NCBI GenBank assembly: GCA_965208125.1
Contig: OZ242320.1
Location: 3,616,001 to 3,680,000, forward strand
Length of the DNA: 64,000 nt
Source of the DNA: Candidatus Latescibacterota bacterium
GTDB taxonomy: Bacteria > Latescibacterota > UBA2968
Reading direction: 5' to 3'
Each line of letters begins with the position of its first letter. Position 1 is the stretch's first letter. Positions 1,562 through 11,525 of the stretch are shown here, in pieces. Made by a program: the position numbers and the translations under genes. The notes below the pieces were generated by a model that saw nothing but the letters and a program-made list of their open reading frames with translations, ran no database searches and had not been told where the DNA came from.

Positions 1562-2077
1562 TGGATAGAAGGATACAGCTTGCGCTGAGGTAGTGAAGAA
1601 AGGAGGTGATAGAGATGAAGAGACGAGTTATATCAAATCCCGAGCAATCGGTCGCTGATGTGACCCCTCTACCGATTAAAACGAGTGATCTGGACGCGTA
1701 TCAAATTGCTCATATATCTGGTGGATCTATATTGGATGTCATCGGTGATTATATCAGTGAGGAATTGGGTATAGACGTACCAGATTTAGATGTTCATCCA
1801 TGGTCCTGGTAAGTTTTTGGTAGAGTGAATATTGGGCTTCCTGATAGTAATCGCGCTACACCTGCAAAAATCGACACTTCAGCGACACGCTCACGGCTTC
1901 TTGCGTCCCCAACAAGGGATGCTATTTGCACTGCGCTGAGGTGGTAAAGAAAGGAGGTGAGGAAGAATGGCGAGACGAATCATATCAAATCCTGAGCAAT
2001 CGGCTTCCTGTGTGACCGATCTACCGCTTGAAACGACGGATCTGAACGTGCATAAATTTTCTCAGGTCTCTGGTGGA
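1521..2077 (+). repeat. Degenerate direct repeat (1521-1725 vs 1864-2077): GT 3' end + RBS + leader of precursors 1/2
   Basis: gcaaaatccgacgcttcagcgatatgctcactgct vs gcaaaaatcgacacttcagcgacacgctcacggct; tgcgctgaggtagtgaagaaaggaggtga vs tgcgctgaggtggtaaagaaaggaggtga; the leader codons are then similar. Confidence 0.85.
1615..1812 (+). CDS. RiPP precursor peptide 1 (37-aa GG leader + 28-aa acidic core ending HPWSW)
   Basis: AGGAGGT RBS at 1601-1607, ATG 1615. Leader has L(-12), I(-7), I(-4), GG. Paralogous to the next ORF and upstream of a C39 transporter. Confidence 0.85.
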   Translation: MKRRVISNPEQSVADVTPLPIKTSDLDAYQIAHISGGSILDVIGDYISEELGIDVPDLDVHPWSW

Positions 2078-2182
2078 TGTTACCCGACCCCGGAGGAAGA
2101 GTTCAGTGAAGAATATGACCCAACACTGGAAGGTATTTTGGATGATGTTGACCCCTTTTACCCCTGGTCCTGGCCAATGTAA
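1967..2182 (+). CDS. RiPP precursor peptide 2 (37-aa GG leader + 34-aa acidic core ending YPWSWPM)
   Basis: AGGAGGT RBS. Leader RRIISNPEQS...LNVHKFSQVSGG aligns without gaps to precursor 1. Confidence 0.85.
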   Translation: MARRIISNPEQSASCVTDLPLETTDLNVHKFSQVSGGCYPTPEEEFSEEYDPTLEGILDDVDPFYPWSWPM

Positions 2183-2328
2183 TTCAGAACCCGGTAAGTA
2201 TTTGGCTCAGTGGAACCTGTTGGTCATTTGTTGTAAATCTCTAATTTTTATTTTTCAAGTACTAAAAAACCAGCTTTATTCTACAAAGTACTTGATAAAT
2301 TTTACAATTCATTTATTCGGAGGATATC

Positions 2329-2637
2329 ATGTCTGCTGTCGCATTAAATAATCGCGTGACTTCAGATTCAGACGCTATTTTTGCGTCTTGCACATCACTG
2401 CCCATCCAGCAAACAACGCTCAATTGTGAAAAAATGGCAGGTATTGATGGTTTATGCCTGTGGGGGACAGTTTTTGGTGAAGTGCACGAGCTTATTTCTG
2501 AATGGGAAGATCAGTTGGAAGATGTTAATACTGTAGCTTCGCTATATTATTATGGCGGTGTTGTTGTTTTGTCTGCCGACCCTCCTGAGCCTGGGGTTGA
2601 GTATCCCCTAATAATACCTAATAAGAAGCTGTTTTGA
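2329..2637 (+). CDS. RiPP precursor peptide 3 (42-aa leader ending GL + 60-aa core)
   Basis: GGAGG RBS. Leader is closely similar to precursor 4 and aligns ungapped to precursors 1/2 (T-x-LPI...L-N...A-x-I-x-G). Confidence 0.8.
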   Translation: MSAVALNNRVTSDSDAIFASCTSLPIQQTTLNCEKMAGIDGLCLWGTVFGEVHELISEWEDQLEDVNTVASLYYYGGVVVLSADPPEPGVEYPLIIPNKKLF

Positions 2638-2747
2638 AATTATTGGGACCTATCCCTTTACTCCTATCCGCGTCAATTTAAGGGGTAAATCACTGTCACT
2701 CCTGCACATGTGGTATCACAATTCCTTTCATTTACCCGGAGGCTATC

Positions 2748-3011
2748 ATGTCCCCTATTGCATCAAATAATCGCTTGACTACGTATTCAGATGCCGCTTT
2801 CGCCTCTTGCACGGCACTATCTATCCATCAAACAACGCTCGACATTGAAGAAATGGCAGGTATTAATGGATTGTGTCATTCTGAGCAAGAAGAAGAAGAG
2901 AATTCTGCAATCCCGACACCACCCAGTCAAGCGGTCATTATGTATTACATATTGAAAGCTAAGAGGCGAATGGAAACCCCCGTGATTTACTGTTCCTATT
3001 CTATTTGGTAA
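2748..3011 (+). CDS. RiPP precursor peptide 4 (42-aa leader ending GL + 45-aa core)
   Basis: GGAGG RBS. Leader NNRLTTYSDAAFASCTALSIHQTTLDIEEMAGINGL is conserved with precursor 3; the core is unrelated. Confidence 0.8.
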   Translation: MSPIASNNRLTTYSDAAFASCTALSIHQTTLDIEEMAGINGLCHSEQEEEENSAIPTPPSQAVIMYYILKAKRRMETPVIYCSYSIW

Positions 3012-3032: not shown

Positions 3033-3064
3033 TGTGGCTACGCCGTGGGCATGGCGTAGCCACA
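3033..3064 (+). promoter_or_regulatory. Stem-loop between precursor array and transporter (attenuator or mRNA stabiliser)
   Basis: Perfect 12-bp stem tgtggctacgcc/ggcgtagccaca with no U-tract. Confidence 0.6.
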
Positions 3065-3083: not shown

Positions 3084-6000
3084 ATGAATCTTTCCCACTT
3101 TTTCTTAAAAAACTCGGTGTGGACGCAGTCTGTTCATTTTCCCTTTGGAGGTGTTGTTTTTCAACAGGGGCAAGCGGGTGAGGCGTTTTATATTGTGGAG
3201 TCTGGACGGTTGCGGGTGATTAAGCAGGATGCGAATGGTACTTCGACAACTGTGGGATATTTGTATGCGGGCGATCATTTTGGTGAAGGGGCACTGTTGA
3301 CCAGGCAGGGGCATCGGGCAACGGTGCGAGCGGTTGAGGATGCGGAGGTGTTGCAGGTGCCCAAGGATGAGTTTTTTAAGGCTGTGAGAAAAAGTTCTGA
3401 TGTACGAGCCTACCTCGAAGAGCAGGTTGCCTGTATTGCATATCGGGATTTTACGCGATTTTTGAAAGGAGATGTTCCGGGCGAGGCGATGCGGGTGTTG
3501 TTCGCGCGGTTGAAGCGCGAGGCAGCTGAGGAGGGTGTGACCGTTGTTGAGCGAGGTCAGTTGGGTCAGCGATTTTATTTGCTTGGTAGCGGTCAGTTGG
3601 AGGCTGTGTTAGAAAATGGTGATACGGTGATTCTACGCCCGGGTGATTATTTTGGCGATGGTAGAGATGATGAAACGATCATTCGCAGTCGGCGTGATGG
3701 TGTACTCTTTTATATAGATAAAAGCAATTTTAATAAGCTAAAAGCTATGATGCCGGGATTCGAGGAGGCGTTGGATAAAGGCTGCATATTGCGTGGAGAA
3801 GAGGGATCAAGAGGGGAATTGCGACCTGTGCTTGAGCCGCCTGTTGTGCGATCTGTTACCCAAAAAGATACAGAGCCTAATACAGCATCCAATGTGGTTA
3901 ATATCAGAATAGACGGTGAAAAACCACAAGTACCTACATTGTTGCGTTTTCCGTTTTTGAAGCAACACGATCAATCAGATTGCGGCGCGGCGTGTTTAGG
4001 CATGATCTGTAAGTATTACAAGATGCCTATTGGATTAAACAGGTTGCGCGATATGTCCAATGTGTCGCGGTATGGCACGTCAATGGCGGCATTGGCCGAG
4101 GCTGCGGAGACACTGGGCTTTGTCACGCGCGGTGTGCGAACGGGTTATGAAGCTCTGATGCGAACAGAATTGCCAGCTATTCTCCACTGGGAAGGCAATC
4201 ATTTTGTGGTCCTGTATCAGATGAATAAAAAGGAAGTGAACATAGCGGATCCAGGTGTGGGTATTCGCAAGCTGTCGCGGGCAGAGTTTGAAAAGGGTTG
4301 GACAAACATGGCGCTTTTGTTGGAATACACGGATCAGGTGGCAGAGAATGAACCCTCTCGGTCTTCTTTTAAGCGGTTTTTTCCATTAATCAGACCCTAT
4401 ACAAGCATTTTGATTGAGGTATTGTTGGCGTCTTTGGTACTCAGTTTGTTTGGTCTGGCATCACCCATTTTTATGCAGACGATTGTCGATCAGGTCTTAG
4501 TGCATCACGATGAGGATTTATTGAATTTGATGCTGGTGGGTATGGTCGTTGTCGCATTGTTCCAGATGGGTACATCGACGTTGCGTGTCTATTTAATCGG
4601 GTATGTGAGTGCGCGATTGAGCATTGCGATGTTGTCGCGTTTTTATCGGCATTTATTGGCACTATCCATGCGGTTTTTTGCCCTCAGGCGCACGGGCGAT
4701 TTGACCACGCGGTTTCGGGAGAATGCAACGATTCAGCGTTTGTTGACGGATACGACGGTTTCTGCGGTTCTGGATTTTATCATGCTTTTTGTCTATCTGG
4801 GTCTGATGTTTTATTACAATGCGGAACTGACGCTGGTCATGTTGATTTTTGTGCCGCTATCTGTGGGTCTCACGCTGATTTACACACCCATTTTGAAGTC
4901 TTTTAGCCAGCGTGCTTTTCTGGCGCGTGCCGAACAATCCTCGGTTTTAATTGATGCGCTGCACGGTATTGATGTGGTTAAAGCCGAGGCGGTGGAGCGC
5001 GCGACACGGTGGCATTGGGAAGGTAAGTTCACAAGGGAAATTCAGATTGGCTTTCAACGGTTAAAAATGCAGATGTTGTTTGGGGGGATGGGAAGGGTAA
5101 TTAATTTGCTGAGCAGTACGGTGATTTTGTGGTATGGTGCCTCATTAGTGATTGCGGGGGACCTGTCGGTTGGGCAGTTGATGGCGTTTAATGCGCTGAT
5201 TGGCAATGTGATGGGTCCCATTATGGGCTTGATCGGAATATGGCCTCAGGTGCAAGAAGCGCGTATTGCCCTGGATCGGCTGAATGATGTGTATGACACG
5301 CAGATGGAAGATGCGCGGCAGCAAGGTCAGGGTTTGATCTTAAAGCATTTGGTAGGGCGCGTGGTTTTTGATGCGGTGTTTTTTAGATATGGTGTTGGTT
5401 CTGATGAACCTTATGTGTTGAATAATATAGACCTGACGCTTGAGCCAGGTCAAAAGGTTGCAGTTGTGGGACGCAGTGGTGCGGGTAAGACGACGTTGGT
5501 CAAGCTGTTGCCCCGTTTGTTTGATCCGTCAGAAGGTCGGGTGATGATAGATGGTATGGATGTGCGAGATCTGGATCCCCATTGGTTACGGCGACAGGTG
5601 GGTATGGTGATGCAGGAGCCGTTTTTGTTTTCTGGCACGATTGCAGAAAATATCGCTATAGGTCAGTCAGATGCGGATATGGATCGCATTTTGGAAGTGG
5701 CGAAACTATCGTGTGTCCACGATTTCGTAAGTGATATGCCTTTGGGGTATGAGACAAAGGTGGGTGAGCAGGGCGTGGGGCTGTCTGGCGGACAGCGACA
5801 GCGGATTGCCATTGCCCGAGCACTTTACCATGATCCGAAAATTTTGATTTTTGACGAGGCGACCAATGCGTTGGATACAGATTCAGAACAGGCGATACAG
5901 GCGAATTTAGATCTGTTTTTGGATGATCGCACGGCGTTGATTATCGCGCATCGGTTGAGTACGGTGCGCGATGCGGATGCGATTGTGGTCTTAGATAAGG

Positions 6001-6092
6001 GTCATATTGTAGAGATGGGCACGCACGATGAGTTGATGGTGCAACAGGGTTTGTATTATCACATGTGTAGTCAACAGTTGCAGGTGGTGTGA
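3084..6092 (+). CDS. Peptidase-containing ABC transporter (2x cNMP-binding + C39 peptidase + TMD + NBD)
   Basis: cNMP motifs (FYIVESG...GDHFGEGALL; FYLLGSG...GDYFG). C39 motifs QHDQSDCGAAC, HWEGNHFVV, IADP. Walker A GRSGAGKT, signature LSGGQRQR, Walker B ILIFDEAT. Confidence 0.95.
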   Translation: MNLSHFFLKNSVWTQSVHFPFGGVVFQQGQAGEAFYIVESGRLRVIKQDANGTSTTVGYLYAGDHFGEGALLTRQGHRATVRAVEDAEVLQVPKDEFFKAVRKSSDVRAYLEEQVACIAYRDFTRFLKGDVPGEAMRVLFARLKREAAEEGVTVVERGQLGQRFYLLGSGQLEAVLENGDTVILRPGDYFGDGRDDETIIRSRRDGVLFYIDKSNFNKLKAMMPGFEEALDKGCILRGEEGSRGELRPVLEPPVVRSVTQKDTEPNTASNVVNIRIDGEKPQVPTLLRFPFLKQHDQSDCGAACLGMICKYYKMPIGLNRLRDMSNVSRYGTSMAALAEAAETLGFVTRGVRTGYEALMRTELPAILHWEGNHFVVLYQMNKKEVNIADPGVGIRKLSRAEFEKGWTNMALLLEYTDQVAENEPSRSSFKRFFPLIRPYTSILIEVLLASLVLSLFGLASPIFMQTIVDQVLVHHDEDLLNLMLVGMVVVALFQMGTSTLRVYLIGYVSARLSIAMLSRFYRHLLALSMRFFALRRTGDLTTRFRENATIQRLLTDTTVSAVLDFIMLFVYLGLMFYYNAELTLVMLIFVPLSVGLTLIYTPILKSFSQRAFLARAEQSSVLIDALHGIDVVKAEAVERATRWHWEGKFTREIQIGFQRLKMQMLFGGMGRVINLLSSTVILWYGASLVIAGDLSVGQLMAFNALIGNVMGPIMGLIGIWPQVQEARIALDRLNDVYDTQMEDARQQGQGLILKHLVGRVVFDAVFFRYGVGSDEPYVLNNIDLTLEPGQKVAVVGRSGAGKTTLVKLLPRLFDPSEGRVMIDGMDVRDLDPHWLRRQVGMVMQEPFLFSGTIAENIAIGQSDADMDRILEVAKLSCVHDFVSDMPLGYETKVGEQGVGLSGGQRQRIAIARALYHDPKILIFDEATNALDTDSEQAIQANLDLFLDDRTALIIAHRLSTVRDADAIVVLDKGHIVEMGTHDELMVQQGLYYHMCSQQLQVV

Positions 6093-7475: not shown

Positions 7476-8251
7476 TGGTGGAGGATGCTATGTTGATTCA
7501 GGTCAATAGTATCGCAGTATCATTGCACCATATTGTGCGACAATTAGGAGTTGCCGATAATCTACGTTTTTTTGATGAATTTGCGCGTAGAGAATTGATC
7601 CGGCAACTCGCGCTACGTGAGGGTGTTTGTGCAGCGCGTGAAGATATTCAGCGTAAGGTGAATGAATGGCGGTATCAACATCGCCTCGAACGGGTGGAAG
7701 ATACAGAGGCTTATCTTGCAAAGCGGGGTATTACGCTTCAGGATGTGGCAGAAGATGCCGAGGTGAGGCGGCTGGAGTTTTTGCTGTCTGAGAAGATTGC
7801 CGAGGGACAGGTCGAACCCTATTTTGCACAACACACATTGGAATTTGATGAGGCGGAGATTTGCTGGATTTTTCACACGGATGAGGGTGTGATCGACGAG
7901 GTTGATTTGCAGATACGAGAAGATGGTGCAGATTTTTACGCGATGGCGCGTCGGTTTTCTCAAGATGCACACACGCGGCCAGGTAGTGGCTTTTTGGGTC
8001 GTGTGAGGCGCAAGCAGTTGCCAAAGGGGATTGCTGCACGCGTGTTTGCCGCTTCACCGGGTGAAATTTTGGGTCCAGAAAAAGTATCGAAAGGCTTTGC
8101 GCTGTATTTGTTGCAGGAACGCTATCCGGCAATGCTGGACGAGCGGATTAAAAAAGAAATTCGCAAGCACCTGTTTAATCAGTGGTTGCAACGAGAGATG
8201 CAGCGGGCAGATATACGATATCCGATTTGGCAGGCGAAAGTCTCTAAATAG
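7472..8251 (+). CDS. PpiC/parvulin-like peptidyl-prolyl isomerase-related peptide maturation protein
   Basis: DFYAMARRFSQD...SGFLGRVRRKQLP...GEILGP rotamase-like motif. GTGA overlap with HlyD. Confidence 0.85.
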   Translation: MMVEDAMLIQVNSIAVSLHHIVRQLGVADNLRFFDEFARRELIRQLALREGVCAAREDIQRKVNEWRYQHRLERVEDTEAYLAKRGITLQDVAEDAEVRRLEFLLSEKIAEGQVEPYFAQHTLEFDEAEICWIFHTDEGVIDEVDLQIREDGADFYAMARRFSQDAHTRPGSGFLGRVRRKQLPKGIAARVFAASPGEILGPEKVSKGFALYLLQERYPAMLDERIKKEIRKHLFNQWLQREMQRADIRYPIWQAKVSK

Positions 8252-8264
8252 AAGGAGAATATGG

Positions 8265-9344
8265 GTGAAAATTATTCTTGTTGCGGGTGCGCGGCCCAAT
8301 TTTATGAAAGTTGCCCCGCTGTGGAATAGACTGATCAAGATGCCCGATGTGTTTGATCCGATTTTGGTGCATACGGGACAACACTATGACGATTTTATGT
8401 CCGAGATTTTTTTTCGAGACTTAAATCTTCCCAGGCCACATTATGAATTAAATGTGGGGTCGGGCAGTCACGCGTACCAGACAGCGCAGATCATGATGGG
8501 ATTTGAGGATGTTTTACTTCAAGAAAGGCCGGATTGGGTTCTTGTCGTTGGCGATGTAAATTCCACTCTGGCATGTGCGATGGATGCAGCAAAATTGCAA
8601 ATCCCCGTTGGACACATAGAGGCAGGGTTGAGAAGCAGGGATAGGTCAATGCCCGAAGAGATCAATCGGCTCGTTGTGGATGCCATATCCGATCTTTTGT
8701 TTGCACCTTCGATGCAGGCGTGTGAAAATCTGAGGCGCGAAGGCATAGAAGAGAGCCGCATTCATTTTGTGGGCAATGTGATGATAGATTCCCTTGTGTT
8801 GCTATCTCCCAAAGCCGATGAATCCCGCATTCTGGATATACACGGTTTATCAGTTCAAGAGTACGTTTTTCTGACTCTCCATCGAGCCTCAAATGTCGAT
8901 TGCCCAGATACGTTGGCTGGCATTGTATCCGCGTTGCAAACCTTCAAATGTCCAATCGCCTGGCCTTTACATCCGAGAACCCGCAATCGCCTATCCCAAT
9001 TTGGTTTTTTGCAAAGGCTTGAGATGATGGACAATATCAAACTTATGGATCCGGTGGGCTATCTCGATTCTTTAAAACTTCAGAAGAATGCAAAATGTGT
9101 GATGACAGATTCTGGAGGATTGCAAGAAGAGACGACGGCTTTGGGTGTGCCGTGTTTGACGCTTAGAGAGCATACAGAACGCCCAGAGACTATAGATATT
9201 GGGACGAATACACTTGTGGGTGTTTGTCCCGAACGCATTGTTGCAGAGGCTGAATCTGTTTTGAAAGGGCACTATAAATCCGGTCGCTTGCCCGAGTTGT
9301 GGGATGGCAATACCGCAGAGCGAATTGTTGCTTTGCTTTGTTGA
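8265..9344 (+). CDS. wecB: UDP-N-acetylglucosamine 2-epimerase (non-hydrolysing)
   Basis: Motifs GARPNFMK, HTGQHYD, GDVNST, HIEAGLRS, PEEINR, TDSGGLQEE, TERPET. GTG 8265 with AGGAG RBS. Confidence 0.95.
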   Translation: MKIILVAGARPNFMKVAPLWNRLIKMPDVFDPILVHTGQHYDDFMSEIFFRDLNLPRPHYELNVGSGSHAYQTAQIMMGFEDVLLQERPDWVLVVGDVNSTLACAMDAAKLQIPVGHIEAGLRSRDRSMPEEINRLVVDAISDLLFAPSMQACENLRREGIEESRIHFVGNVMIDSLVLLSPKADESRILDIHGLSVQEYVFLTLHRASNVDCPDTLAGIVSALQTFKCPIAWPLHPRTRNRLSQFGFLQRLEMMDNIKLMDPVGYLDSLKLQKNAKCVMTDSGGLQEETTALGVPCLTLREHTERPETIDIGTNTLVGVCPERIVAEAESVLKGHYKSGRLPELWDGNTAERIVALLC

Positions 9345-9967: not shown

Positions 9968-10819
9968 TCAAGGCATCACAGCTTCTTTCCCCTGATATTC
10001 TCGGATCCAGCCTTTTAATGGCACGTCCTCTTCTGTTGGGGATGTGTAGCCGTGAATGCCCGATGGAGAATGCCGGCACATTTGCTTTCGGATTGGACTT
10101 AGTTCATCCCAGAAATTTTCCACATTGCATTCGCCGCGGGCTTGAAGCCAGCGATAAGCGTAGCCGTAGAAGAGCACCTTGCGGGGTTGTGTCCAGTAAT
10201 TTGCACTTGCCGAATGCCACAATCGACGGTCAAAAATAACGGCTGTACCCCGGGGGGCGAGGATGGGTACGGCGCGTTTTACCATCTGATTGCGATTTCC
10301 GTTCGGCCAATTCATTTTATTTTTTAACTGGCTTCCCGGAATGACGTGAAAATTGCCGCGTCCCGGTTCACTTGTATCCGATAGGAAGTAGGCCACTTTG
10401 ACCGATAAGCGAGGCCTCGGGTTTGTCTCCATCTCTTGATTCACGCGCCCGGTATCTTGATGCCAGCCGATCCCCAAACCGCGTTTGCTATCTGGTGGTT
10501 CGGGAGGTGTCACGTTCAGGTGTGCCAGATAGATTTGAATATTCCATCCCAAAATTCCCCAAACTTTTGGGAATGTGGTGTAGTGATCTATCAGGTCAAT
10601 AAACACTTGATCCCGCCCCAGAAAGTCGCGTTCGTGAACACGCTTATGGGGTTCGATTTTTTGCTTTTCGCGTTCTTCGGCATTGACGCGATCAACTGCT
10701 TTGGTCAGTTGTCTTCTCTTGGCGTCGCTCAGCGCGTTTTCAATGATGAGATAACCCCGATCGTCAAATTCGAGCCGTTCGTCTTCTGTCAGGCAATGGT
10801 GTAGCCAGCGTCTGTTCAT
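9968..10819 (-). CDS. Phytanoyl-CoA dioxygenase (PhyH) family Fe/2OG oxygenase
   Basis: FDDRGYLIIENAL, WHQD, VIPGSQ, IFDRRLWHS motifs. Confidence 0.9.
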   Translation of the reverse strand: MNRRWLHHCLTEDERLEFDDRGYLIIENALSDAKRRQLTKAVDRVNAEEREKQKIEPHKRVHERDFLGRDQVFIDLIDHYTTFPKVWGILGWNIQIYLAHLNVTPPEPPDSKRGLGIGWHQDTGRVNQEMETNPRPRLSVKVAYFLSDTSEPGRGNFHVIPGSQLKNKMNWPNGNRNQMVKRAVPILAPRGTAVIFDRRLWHSASANYWTQPRKVLFYGYAYRWLQARGECNVENFWDELSPIRKQMCRHSPSGIHGYTSPTEEDVPLKGWIREYQGKEAVMP

Positions 10820-11449: not shown

Positions 11450-11525
11450 TGGAGCCGCCCAGCGGACTCGAACCGCTGACCGCCTGATTACAAATCAGGT
11501 GCTCTACCAGCTGAGCTAGGGCGGC
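11450..11525 (-). tRNA. tRNA-Thr(TGT)
   Basis: Reverse complement GCCGCCCTAGCTCAGCTGGTAGAGCACCTGATTTGTAATCAGGCGGTCAGCGGTTCGAGTCCGCTGGGCGGCTCCA is 76 nt, folds as a cloverleaf, has anticodon TGT and an encoded CCA. Confidence 0.97.

Follow-up and report, generated by a model that had tools for sequence, protein, structure and literature searches.

Four small precursor genes in a 64,000-nucleotide stretch of a Candidatus Latescibacterota bacterium genome (contig OZ242320.1, positions 3,616,001 to 3,680,000; the whole stretch is called the window below) encode peptides, pre1 to pre4, that carry a single leader family of the double-glycine type and lie directly upstream of a gene for an ATP-binding cassette (ABC) exporter with a C39 peptidase domain. 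At the last leader position (-1), pre1 and pre2 have Gly and pre3 and pre4 have Leu, and this Gly-Leu (GL) ending is not confined to the window: 59 of 209 aligned family members carry it, as the constant junction of an entire leader subfamily. The explanation that we consider best as a whole, and to which we give somewhat better than an even chance, is that pre1 to pre4 are exported peptides built on one variant of the double-glycine leader and served by a pump that would be permissive at P1, the residue preceding the cleaved bond.

The four 34-residue leader strings quoted in a preliminary description of this DNA were recovered letter for letter at the corresponding forward-strand open reading frames (ORFs), and its proposal of one leader family common to all four precursors stands, with shuffle tests and profile comparison in agreement. 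Briefly, leaders were compared by gapless BLOSUM62 score against 20000 shuffles per pair. Within-pair z-scores were 11.1 (pre1/pre2) and 11.9 (pre3/pre4), cross-pair z-scores were 6.3 (pre1/pre3), 5.5 (pre1/pre4), 6.4 (pre2/pre3) and 4.8 (pre2/pre4), and the observed score was reached by 0 of 20000 shuffles for every pair. For single sequences, the link between pre1/pre2 and pre3/pre4 is weak, because BLASTP of pre1 against pre3 returned no alignment at E ≤ 100. At the level of profiles, an hhalign comparison of 20 type A/B rows (pre1 and pre2 are type A) with 21 type C rows (the type of pre3 and pre4) gave a probability of 95.8%, an E-value of 8.3e-9 and 36 aligned columns ending at Gly(-2). 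Furthermore, 92 unique precursors from the collected loci align in a single register.

A profile search of Pfam and NCBIfam matched the leaders to no named family, Nif11 and NHLP included, which the preliminary description had also thought them not to resemble. None of the four precursors matched a leader or bacteriocin family at E ≤ 1 in either collection, and the sole matches (DUF7497 and LIME1 for pre3 and pre4; PRK13250 and EndglycodaseB1) were at chance level, far below cut-off. The named families tried included the TIGR01847-type bacteriocin signal, Bacteriocin_IIc and TIGR03949, and the four precursors stayed below the cut-off of each. Among 28 diverse relatives, only one, the GG-type P0064, passes a curated cut-off (TIGR03949, class IIb lactobin A/cerein 7B, 22.9 against 21.5 bits), while a GL-type relative, P0040, has a sub-threshold match to Bacteriocin_IIc (22.7 against 27.1).

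The ORFs are conserved, with the family present in 20 of 20 genus genomes and in 36 of 41 relatives. Across the phylum, the leader profile was found in 41 of 168 Latescibacterota genomes, from two families of one order (22 of 30 genomes in f1 and 18 of 22 in f2), and in 0 of the 116 phylum genomes outside those families. Genera with the leader are also those with close C39 domains (20/20 genomes in g1, 15/15 in g6, 2/2 in g8 and 1/1 in g10), the only mismatches being two fragmented genomes in which the leader is present and the C39 domain was undetected. In larger databases, a type C profile matched 77 proteins among 5.8 billion, the few source-named ones being called hypothetical, and a leader-only profile gave 95 matches among 1.84 billion cluster representatives, 6 of which are long repeat proteins and probably spurious. 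The search for related loci used 7 closer alignment rows.

All four leaders have Leu at -12, a hydrophobic residue at -7, Ile or Val at -4 and Gly at -2, and the C39 recognition register first proposed for them (L-12, E/Q-8, M/I-7, a hydrophobic residue at -4, G-2) is borne out by the wider family. In a leader logo built on 217 non-redundant members, Leu occupies -12 in 208 of 217, Glu or Gln -8 in 175 of 215, and Met -7 in 174 of 215, position -4 is mostly Ile, Val or Thr, and Gly is invariant at -2 (209 of 209 aligned). This C-terminal half of the leader coincides with the C39 recognition register published in PMC6363468 and PMC10885120. Conservation extends into the N-terminal half, with Arg at -34 (188/215), Cys at -22 (185/217), Leu at -19 (217/217) and Pro at -18 (170/217). 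Because this conserved N-terminal half exceeds what published studies found necessary, a second reader of the leader is suggested. Every module contains a pump with cyclic nucleotide (cNMP)-binding domains, an HlyD protein and a SurA/PrsA-like protein, any of which might read the N-terminal motif. The preliminary description had suggested that the R-x-x-S...L-P part of this motif may dock a modifying enzyme, with the neighboring glycosyltransferase family 4 (GT4) protein as a candidate; that idea is weakened, as five genomes of the sister genus (95-99% complete) retain the motif although GT4 was not found in them at E ≤ 1e-10, making GT4 a poor candidate for a universal leader reader. One database protein, P0086, is a chimera: it opens with the N-terminus of a type C leader and continues in frame as type B, from the C-terminal half of the leader through the core, which suggests recombination between leader types.

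C39 leaders usually end in GG, GA or GS, according to PMC6363468, PMC10986499 and PMC10885120. A small residue of this kind (Gly, Ala or Ser) is missing from position -1 in pre3, in pre4 and in 70 of the 209 aligned family members. The census of positions -2/-1 comprises GG (130), GL (59), GA (9), GE (6), GQ (2) and GV, GK and GM (1 each), with 8 members unaligned to the leader end and one GT junction besides. Members with GL form a coherent type C group across the genus plus two sister-genus loci, and their Leu falls in the column of the second Gly, where more distant or sister-genus type C leaders carry GG. At least three unrelated core classes begin directly after GL, which by these alignments marks the border between leader and core. 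In 23 GL precursors the residue is encoded by four different codons (CTG 8, TTG 7, TTA 7, CTC 1), which argues that selection maintains Leu as a constituent of the leader module. Neither pre3 nor pre4 contains GG, GA or GS within 30 residues after GL, and the next GG of pre3 lies at core residues 35-36. This downstream GG was considered as the true site and rejected, as Ser at its -7 breaks the register and many type C cores are without a matching internal GG. Internal hydrophobic residues followed by GG are present in pre3 (residues 75-79, window 2551-2565) and in otherwise dissimilar type C cores of loci L005, L007 and L010; the residues that precede this internal motif misfit the leader register. 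A partial literature library that excluded supplements yielded no Gly-Leu site for these pumps and no peptide clusters from Latescibacteria; Table S3 of PMC3140520, a precursor list, may hold non-GG sites.

Leaders and cores are both under constraint. The ratio of non-synonymous to synonymous substitution rates (dN/dS), pooled over non-overlapping nearest pairs with dS of 0.29-0.43, was 0.31 for the leader and 0.65 for the core in type C (12 pairs) and 0.39 and 0.27 in type A/B (23 pairs), i.e. below 1 throughout, with type C cores the least constrained. Between pre3 and its closest orthologue, dN/dS was 0.07 for the leader (10 synonymous, 3 non-synonymous) and 2.57 for the core (3 synonymous, 23 non-synonymous), both values resting on small counts.

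The presumed partner of these leaders, the C39 pump encoded 73 nt downstream of pre4, matches Pfam cNMP_binding (two stretches), Peptidase_C39 (E 2.8e-40), ABC_membrane and ABC_tran, and passes TIGR01193 (530.2 bits, cut-off 523.85). Its Gln, Cys, His and Asp align with Q15, C21, H99 and D115 of PCAT1, whose catalytic roles are described in PMC6959990. The window's genome holds four members of the precursor family and a single C39 domain, that of this pump, with its catalytic set intact. At another locus, L048, one GL precursor accompanies ABC, Rce1-like, HlyD and PpiC-like genes. The parvulin protein encoded in the window matches Pfam Rotamase (E 1.7e-12) and is related to TIGR04500, 'putative peptide maturation system protein', which it matches at 86.2 bits, under the cut-off of 180. 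Its profile matches the parvulin domain of SurA (E 1e-7) and, over residues 36-221, PrsA1 (E 2e-5) in the Protein Data Bank (PDB). Its fold model is poor (predicted local distance difference test, pLDDT, 53.8), with the SurA-like chaperone 3rgc_B as top match (E 3.3e-4, template modeling score, TM, 0.37), so that the fold matches back a SurA/PrsA-like architecture only weakly. By eye, its N-terminus contains no stretch resembling a signal peptide.

In the model that we infer for binding, cleavage position, export, peptide activity and GT4 glycosylation, the amphipathic stretch of the leader (L-12, E/Q-8, M/I-7, I/V-4) together with the invariant Gly(-2) would dock on the C39 domain of the neighboring pump, which would cut the leader off at Gly(-2)-X(-1). 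The core would then exit by way of the ABC protein and the HlyD adaptor and cross the outer membrane in a channel encoded elsewhere, an export step that the two N-terminal cNMP-binding domains would gate, and the SurA/PrsA-like protein would handle the precursors before the pump. Position -1 in this pump clade would not be limited to Gly, Ala or Ser, and Leu would have been selected within the leader module. The peptides have a fixed order, small acidic A/B ones and then the larger C ones, with CPBP (Rce1-like) and DUF3267 genes of membrane-protease-like type behind them in relatives; the cargo would be bacteriocin-like, accompanied by immunity genes and possibly working in pairs. Within this model, we assign a little less than an even chance to a permissive pump that cuts after Gly-Leu. 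A more specific proposal, which we put forward tentatively, is that cNMP-gated C39 pumps of this clade cut after Gly-X (Leu here; Glu, Lys, Met, Val or Thr in relatives) and that Leu tunes the rate or timing of type C release relative to the GG partners.

Several observations weigh against the model of a P1-permissive pump and bacteriocin-like cargo. The need for small residues has been ascribed to a very narrow cleft (PMC6363468 and PMC6959990), and a typical pump should not accommodate Leu at P1. Within the 170-residue C39 region, no column splits the 16 GL-holding loci from the 9 GG-only loci, and L038 places a GL precursor beside a C39 domain of sister-genus type, so there is no sign of a Leu-adapted pocket. 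Both GQ cases have GG or SGG one to two residues downstream, and because GG trails these junctions so closely, the real site of some members may lie downstream. The four window cores match no bacteriocin family in Pfam or NCBIfam, and three of the four are strongly acidic, unlike typical cationic bacteriocins. Lastly, the loci stem from genomes that are related to one another, and this non-independence makes the counts given here overstate the support. C39 residue 330 was considered as a marker of GL and rejected: it is Tyr or Ser in the genus and Asp, Glu or His in the sister genus, a split that follows taxonomy, and L038 combines Glu with GL. Taken on sequence, either the whole pump clade would be permissive at P1 or its C39 domain would leave GL leaders uncut.

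Alternative explanations divide over what becomes of the GL leader. In a two-step scheme, which we regard as unlikely, this leader would only dock, and a CPBP (Rce1-like), DUF3267 zincin-like or extracellular protease would remove it. The narrow cleavage cleft of known pumps (PMC6959990) speaks for this scheme, and removal of a leader in two steps is known for lichenicidin and cytolysin (PMC10885120). The DUF3267 and Rce1-like genes also track the precursor cassettes, and the missing covariation of any C39 residue with GL points the same way. However, CPBP proteins encoded beside class II bacteriocin genes are usually taken as immunity proteins, the hydrophobic register places GL exactly at the canonical site, and the sister genus with GG leaders has the same protease-like genes, which are therefore not specific to GL. 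That GL precursors are bound and never cut, being either exported with their leader or retained as decoys or regulators that slow the export of GG peptides, appears rather improbable to us. A narrow S1 site should indeed be obstructed by Leu at P1, one pump is available in this genome to GL and GG precursors alike, and transport without cleavage is known for C39-like domains lacking the catalytic Cys (PMC10986499); yet type C cores are long, hypervariable and in some cases similar to Gly-zipper class II bacteriocins, as expected of cargo and not of a regulator, the GL precursor is the sole cargo of a complete pump set at L048, and the same type C role is filled by GG in the sister genus.

A shifted register, with cleavage after the single Gly(-2) and Leu as the first residue of the mature peptide, we consider very unlikely. 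It would fit the status of Gly(-2) as the only invariant junction residue and the wide variation at -1 across the family, but Leu is conserved over unrelated core classes, as a residue of the leader module would be, and with the shift P2 would become Asp or Asn, and L-12, M-7 and I-4 would leave the canonical register. We give practically no credence to chance similarity or to ORFs that are not genes. The empty BLASTP comparison of pre1 with pre3 is the point in its favor, and against it stand the shuffle tests and the hhalign result, conservation across the genus with dN/dS below 1, and the distribution that the family has in common with the pump. Our favored reading is that of exported peptides on a double-glycine-leader variant with a P1-permissive pump.

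The context of the precursors is that of a module with the order 861-aa glycosyltransferase, GT4, precursors, DUF3267 and CPBP genes, pump, HlyD, PpiC-like gene and sometimes WecB. Synteny of this module holds throughout the genus (82-93% protein identity), with variable cores. In the sister genus, the DUF3267/CPBP genes lie between precursors and pump in variable copy number, and copies stand among or beside the precursors in sister-genus loci and several genus loci. In the window's own genome, genes for a DUF3267 putative zincin and for an Rce1-like CPBP protein (L052:11534-13285) lie 2.7-4.5 kb upstream of the window, before the 861-aa double glycosyltransferase gene that precedes GT4. All A/B genes precede all C genes in 25 of the 26 loci holding both types. 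The exception, L069:5109-11350, comprises three tandem units, in each of which one type A and one type C precursor are accompanied by an Rce1-like gene, a layout that resembles two-peptide bacteriocin operons with an immunity gene. The fixed order, with type A/B precursors ahead of type C, lends some support to the earlier suggestion that the GL precursors act as partners of the others, and A/B and C peptides may act as pairs. Cores of some relatives are Gly-zipper-like and those of others are of low complexity and rich in Ser, Thr and Gly. These features suggest that the cargo consists of secreted, fast-evolving, bacteriocin-like peptides with immunity-type neighbors.

GT4 adjoins the precursors in genus loci and in paralogous loci, where it travels with the module down to 52% identity (GT4 52-69%, pump 66-67%). 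Its structural model (mean pLDDT 76.6) has a confident GT-B core, a segment below 50 (residues 372-413) and three helices at 417-465. The nearest solved folds (MshA, GlgM, BshA, PimA) are generic GT-B, the core dominating the whole-protein search. The C-terminal extension of ~100 aa is lineage-specific: matches to the last 108 aa were confined to 38 protein clusters with lengths of 265-484 aa (467 aa in 33 of the clusters), which all carry the same GT4 Pfam domains, and a search of the ESM Atlas with this C-terminal domain gave nothing. From its position, GT4 may glycosylate the peptides. Some low-complexity cores (L067:7248-7700, L053:7326-7736, L055:6838-7293) are rich in Gly, Ser, Thr and Lys, with repeated KGG and TTG; these cores, from GT4-linked paralogous loci, look like substrates of O-glycosylation.

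The locus resembles several known systems in part. With ComA/ComC, CvaB/colicin V, LahT and PCAT1/CtA it shares a leader of ~40 aa, hydrophobic at -12, -7 and -4 with Glu or Gln at -8 and Gly at -2, an adjacent C39 pump with Gln, Cys, His and Asp, and diverse cores. It differs from these double-glycine systems in the non-small residue at -1 (Leu, Glu, Gln, Val, Lys or Met in 70/209) and in the extra conserved N-terminal half (R-34, C-22, L-19, P-18), for which there is no named leader model. Cyanobacterial 'group I' clusters, as described by Wang et al. 2011 (PMC3140520), combine a long C39 ABC pump with HlyD and a rotamase of SurA type, and the present locus likewise has a long-type C39 ABC pump, HlyD, a rotamase gene and adjacent small precursor genes. 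Synechococcus elongatus PteB has four precursors, EbfG1-4, that are cut after GG or GA and are needed for biofilm formation (PMC4997328); there, as here, several small precursor genes (four in S. elongatus) lie directly upstream. HetC of Nostoc has an N-terminal cNMP-type domain, binds ppGpp in vitro and has no known substrate; the study describing it suggests that an 'atypical cleavage signal' may be involved (PMC10986499). This locus differs from the group I, PteB and HetC systems in its host (Latescibacterota), its unnamed leader family, its Gly-X junction and its additional GT4, 861-aa glycosyltransferase, CPBP and DUF3267 genes.

Class IIb and Gly-zipper class II bacteriocins with Abi/CPBP proteins offer a further parallel, in tandem precursors followed by CPBP membrane proteins and in the GxxxG-rich cores of relatives. 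Here, by comparison, the window cores match neither TIGR03949 nor Bacteriocin_IIc, A/B cores have a strongly acidic composition, and export from the diderm host involves an HlyD adaptor. Glycocins, S- or O-glycosylated peptides of the sublancin type, likewise have a glycosyltransferase gene by double-glycine-type precursors and a C39 pump, and several cores here are Cys-first or rich in Ser or Thr. Glycocin transferases are GT2/GT-A enzymes, whereas the enzyme here is a GT4 of GT-B fold, and five sister-genus genomes that keep the leader family gave no GT4 match.

Coordinates of the locus are collected in Table 1. A GGAGG-type ribosome-binding site lies 6-8 nt before each ATG from pre1 to pre4, that of pre1 being AAAGGAGGTGA, upstream of the gene. 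Alignment of 1490-1640 with 1842-1992 gives a mean column identity of 80%, and because the 3' end of GT4 and the ribosome-binding site recur in diverged form before pre2, we conclude that pre1 and pre2 originated through tandem duplication. Orthologues of pre4 are P0047, P0049-51 and P0080.

Table 1. Features of the peptide-export locus (window positions)
Feature	Position	Strand	Details
GT4-family glycosyltransferase, 467 aa	158..1561	+	Pfam Glycos_transf_1 E 9.8e-19
pre1, type A precursor, 65 aa from ATG	1615..1812	+	leader 1615-1725, end GG; acidic core 28 aa, C-terminus PWSW; GTG at 1606 is an alternative start
Diverged copy of last ~70 nt of GT4 gene and ribosome-binding site	1842..1966	+	5' of pre2
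pre2, type A precursor, 71 aa	1967..2182	+	leader 1967-2077, end GG; acidic core 34 aa, first residue Cys, last residues PWSWPM
pre3, type C precursor, 102 aa	2329..2637	+	leader 2329-2454, end GL; core 60 aa
pre4, type C precursor, 87 aa	2748..3011	+	leader 2748-2873, end GL; core 45 aa, Cys at +1 and another near C-terminus
Intercistronic stem-loop	3018..3080	+	inner 14-bp stem 3033-3064; between pre4 and pump gene
Pump, 1002 aa: two cNMP-binding domains, C39 peptidase, ABC exporter	3084..6092	+	
HlyD-family type I secretion adaptor, 460 aa	6093..7475	+	TIGR01843 216.5 bits (cut-off 208.65); Pfam HlyD_3
SurA/PrsA-like parvulin protein (PpiC-like), 259 aa	7472..8251	+	start overlaps HlyD stop
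WecB UDP-GlcNAc 2-epimerase, accessory gene	ORF 8031..9344	+	TIGR00236 334.8 bits

The stem-loop ahead of the pump gene has a predicted RNA folding energy of -35.1 kcal/mol (z -5.3), and 0 of 200 shuffles were equally stable. The 135 nt that precede the pump gene in relatives have folding energies of -41 to -55 kcal/mol in 6 of 12 cases and of -26 to -36 kcal/mol in the other 6, as whole-segment values without a shuffle control; one of the 6 strongly folding relatives has the window's sequence and 5 have different sequences. The element is probably an attenuator or transcript-stabilizing structure that sets the ratio of precursor to pump. Promoter and terminator scans gave counts not clearly above shuffles (14 vs 13.5 and 16 vs 9.5). 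At the distal end, the longest WecB ORF has a TTG start and overlaps the PpiC-like gene by 220 nt; its true start is probably near 8265, because the TIGR00236 match begins at residue 79. WecB follows the PpiC-like gene in 6 fetched loci (L024, L057, L058, L059, L064 and L065) and is absent in the rest. The stretch from the PpiC-like gene to a PhyH-family gene (9968-10819, minus strand) gains or loses WecB and a 150-aa ORF among relatives, and near the right edge of the variable region a tRNA gene (11453-11525, minus strand) lies beside a membrane protein gene and ddl.

Both peptide genome mining and tools for C39 leader removal presume a GG, GA or GS site. A third of this natural family, which is under purifying selection, has a bulky or charged residue at -1 with every other recognition feature kept, and a single C39 domain is present in this genome. 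For the uncultured phylum Latescibacterota, the locus documents a peptide-secretion system whose cargo is hypervariable. Should the pump indeed cleave after Gly-Leu, this would widen the known specificity of the protease class and provide a new tool enzyme, and the Gly-X motif could be used to find substrates of cNMP-domain pumps with orphan cargo, such as HetC. For a whole branch of pumps, the 'double-glycine' rule would then become a Gly(-2) rule.

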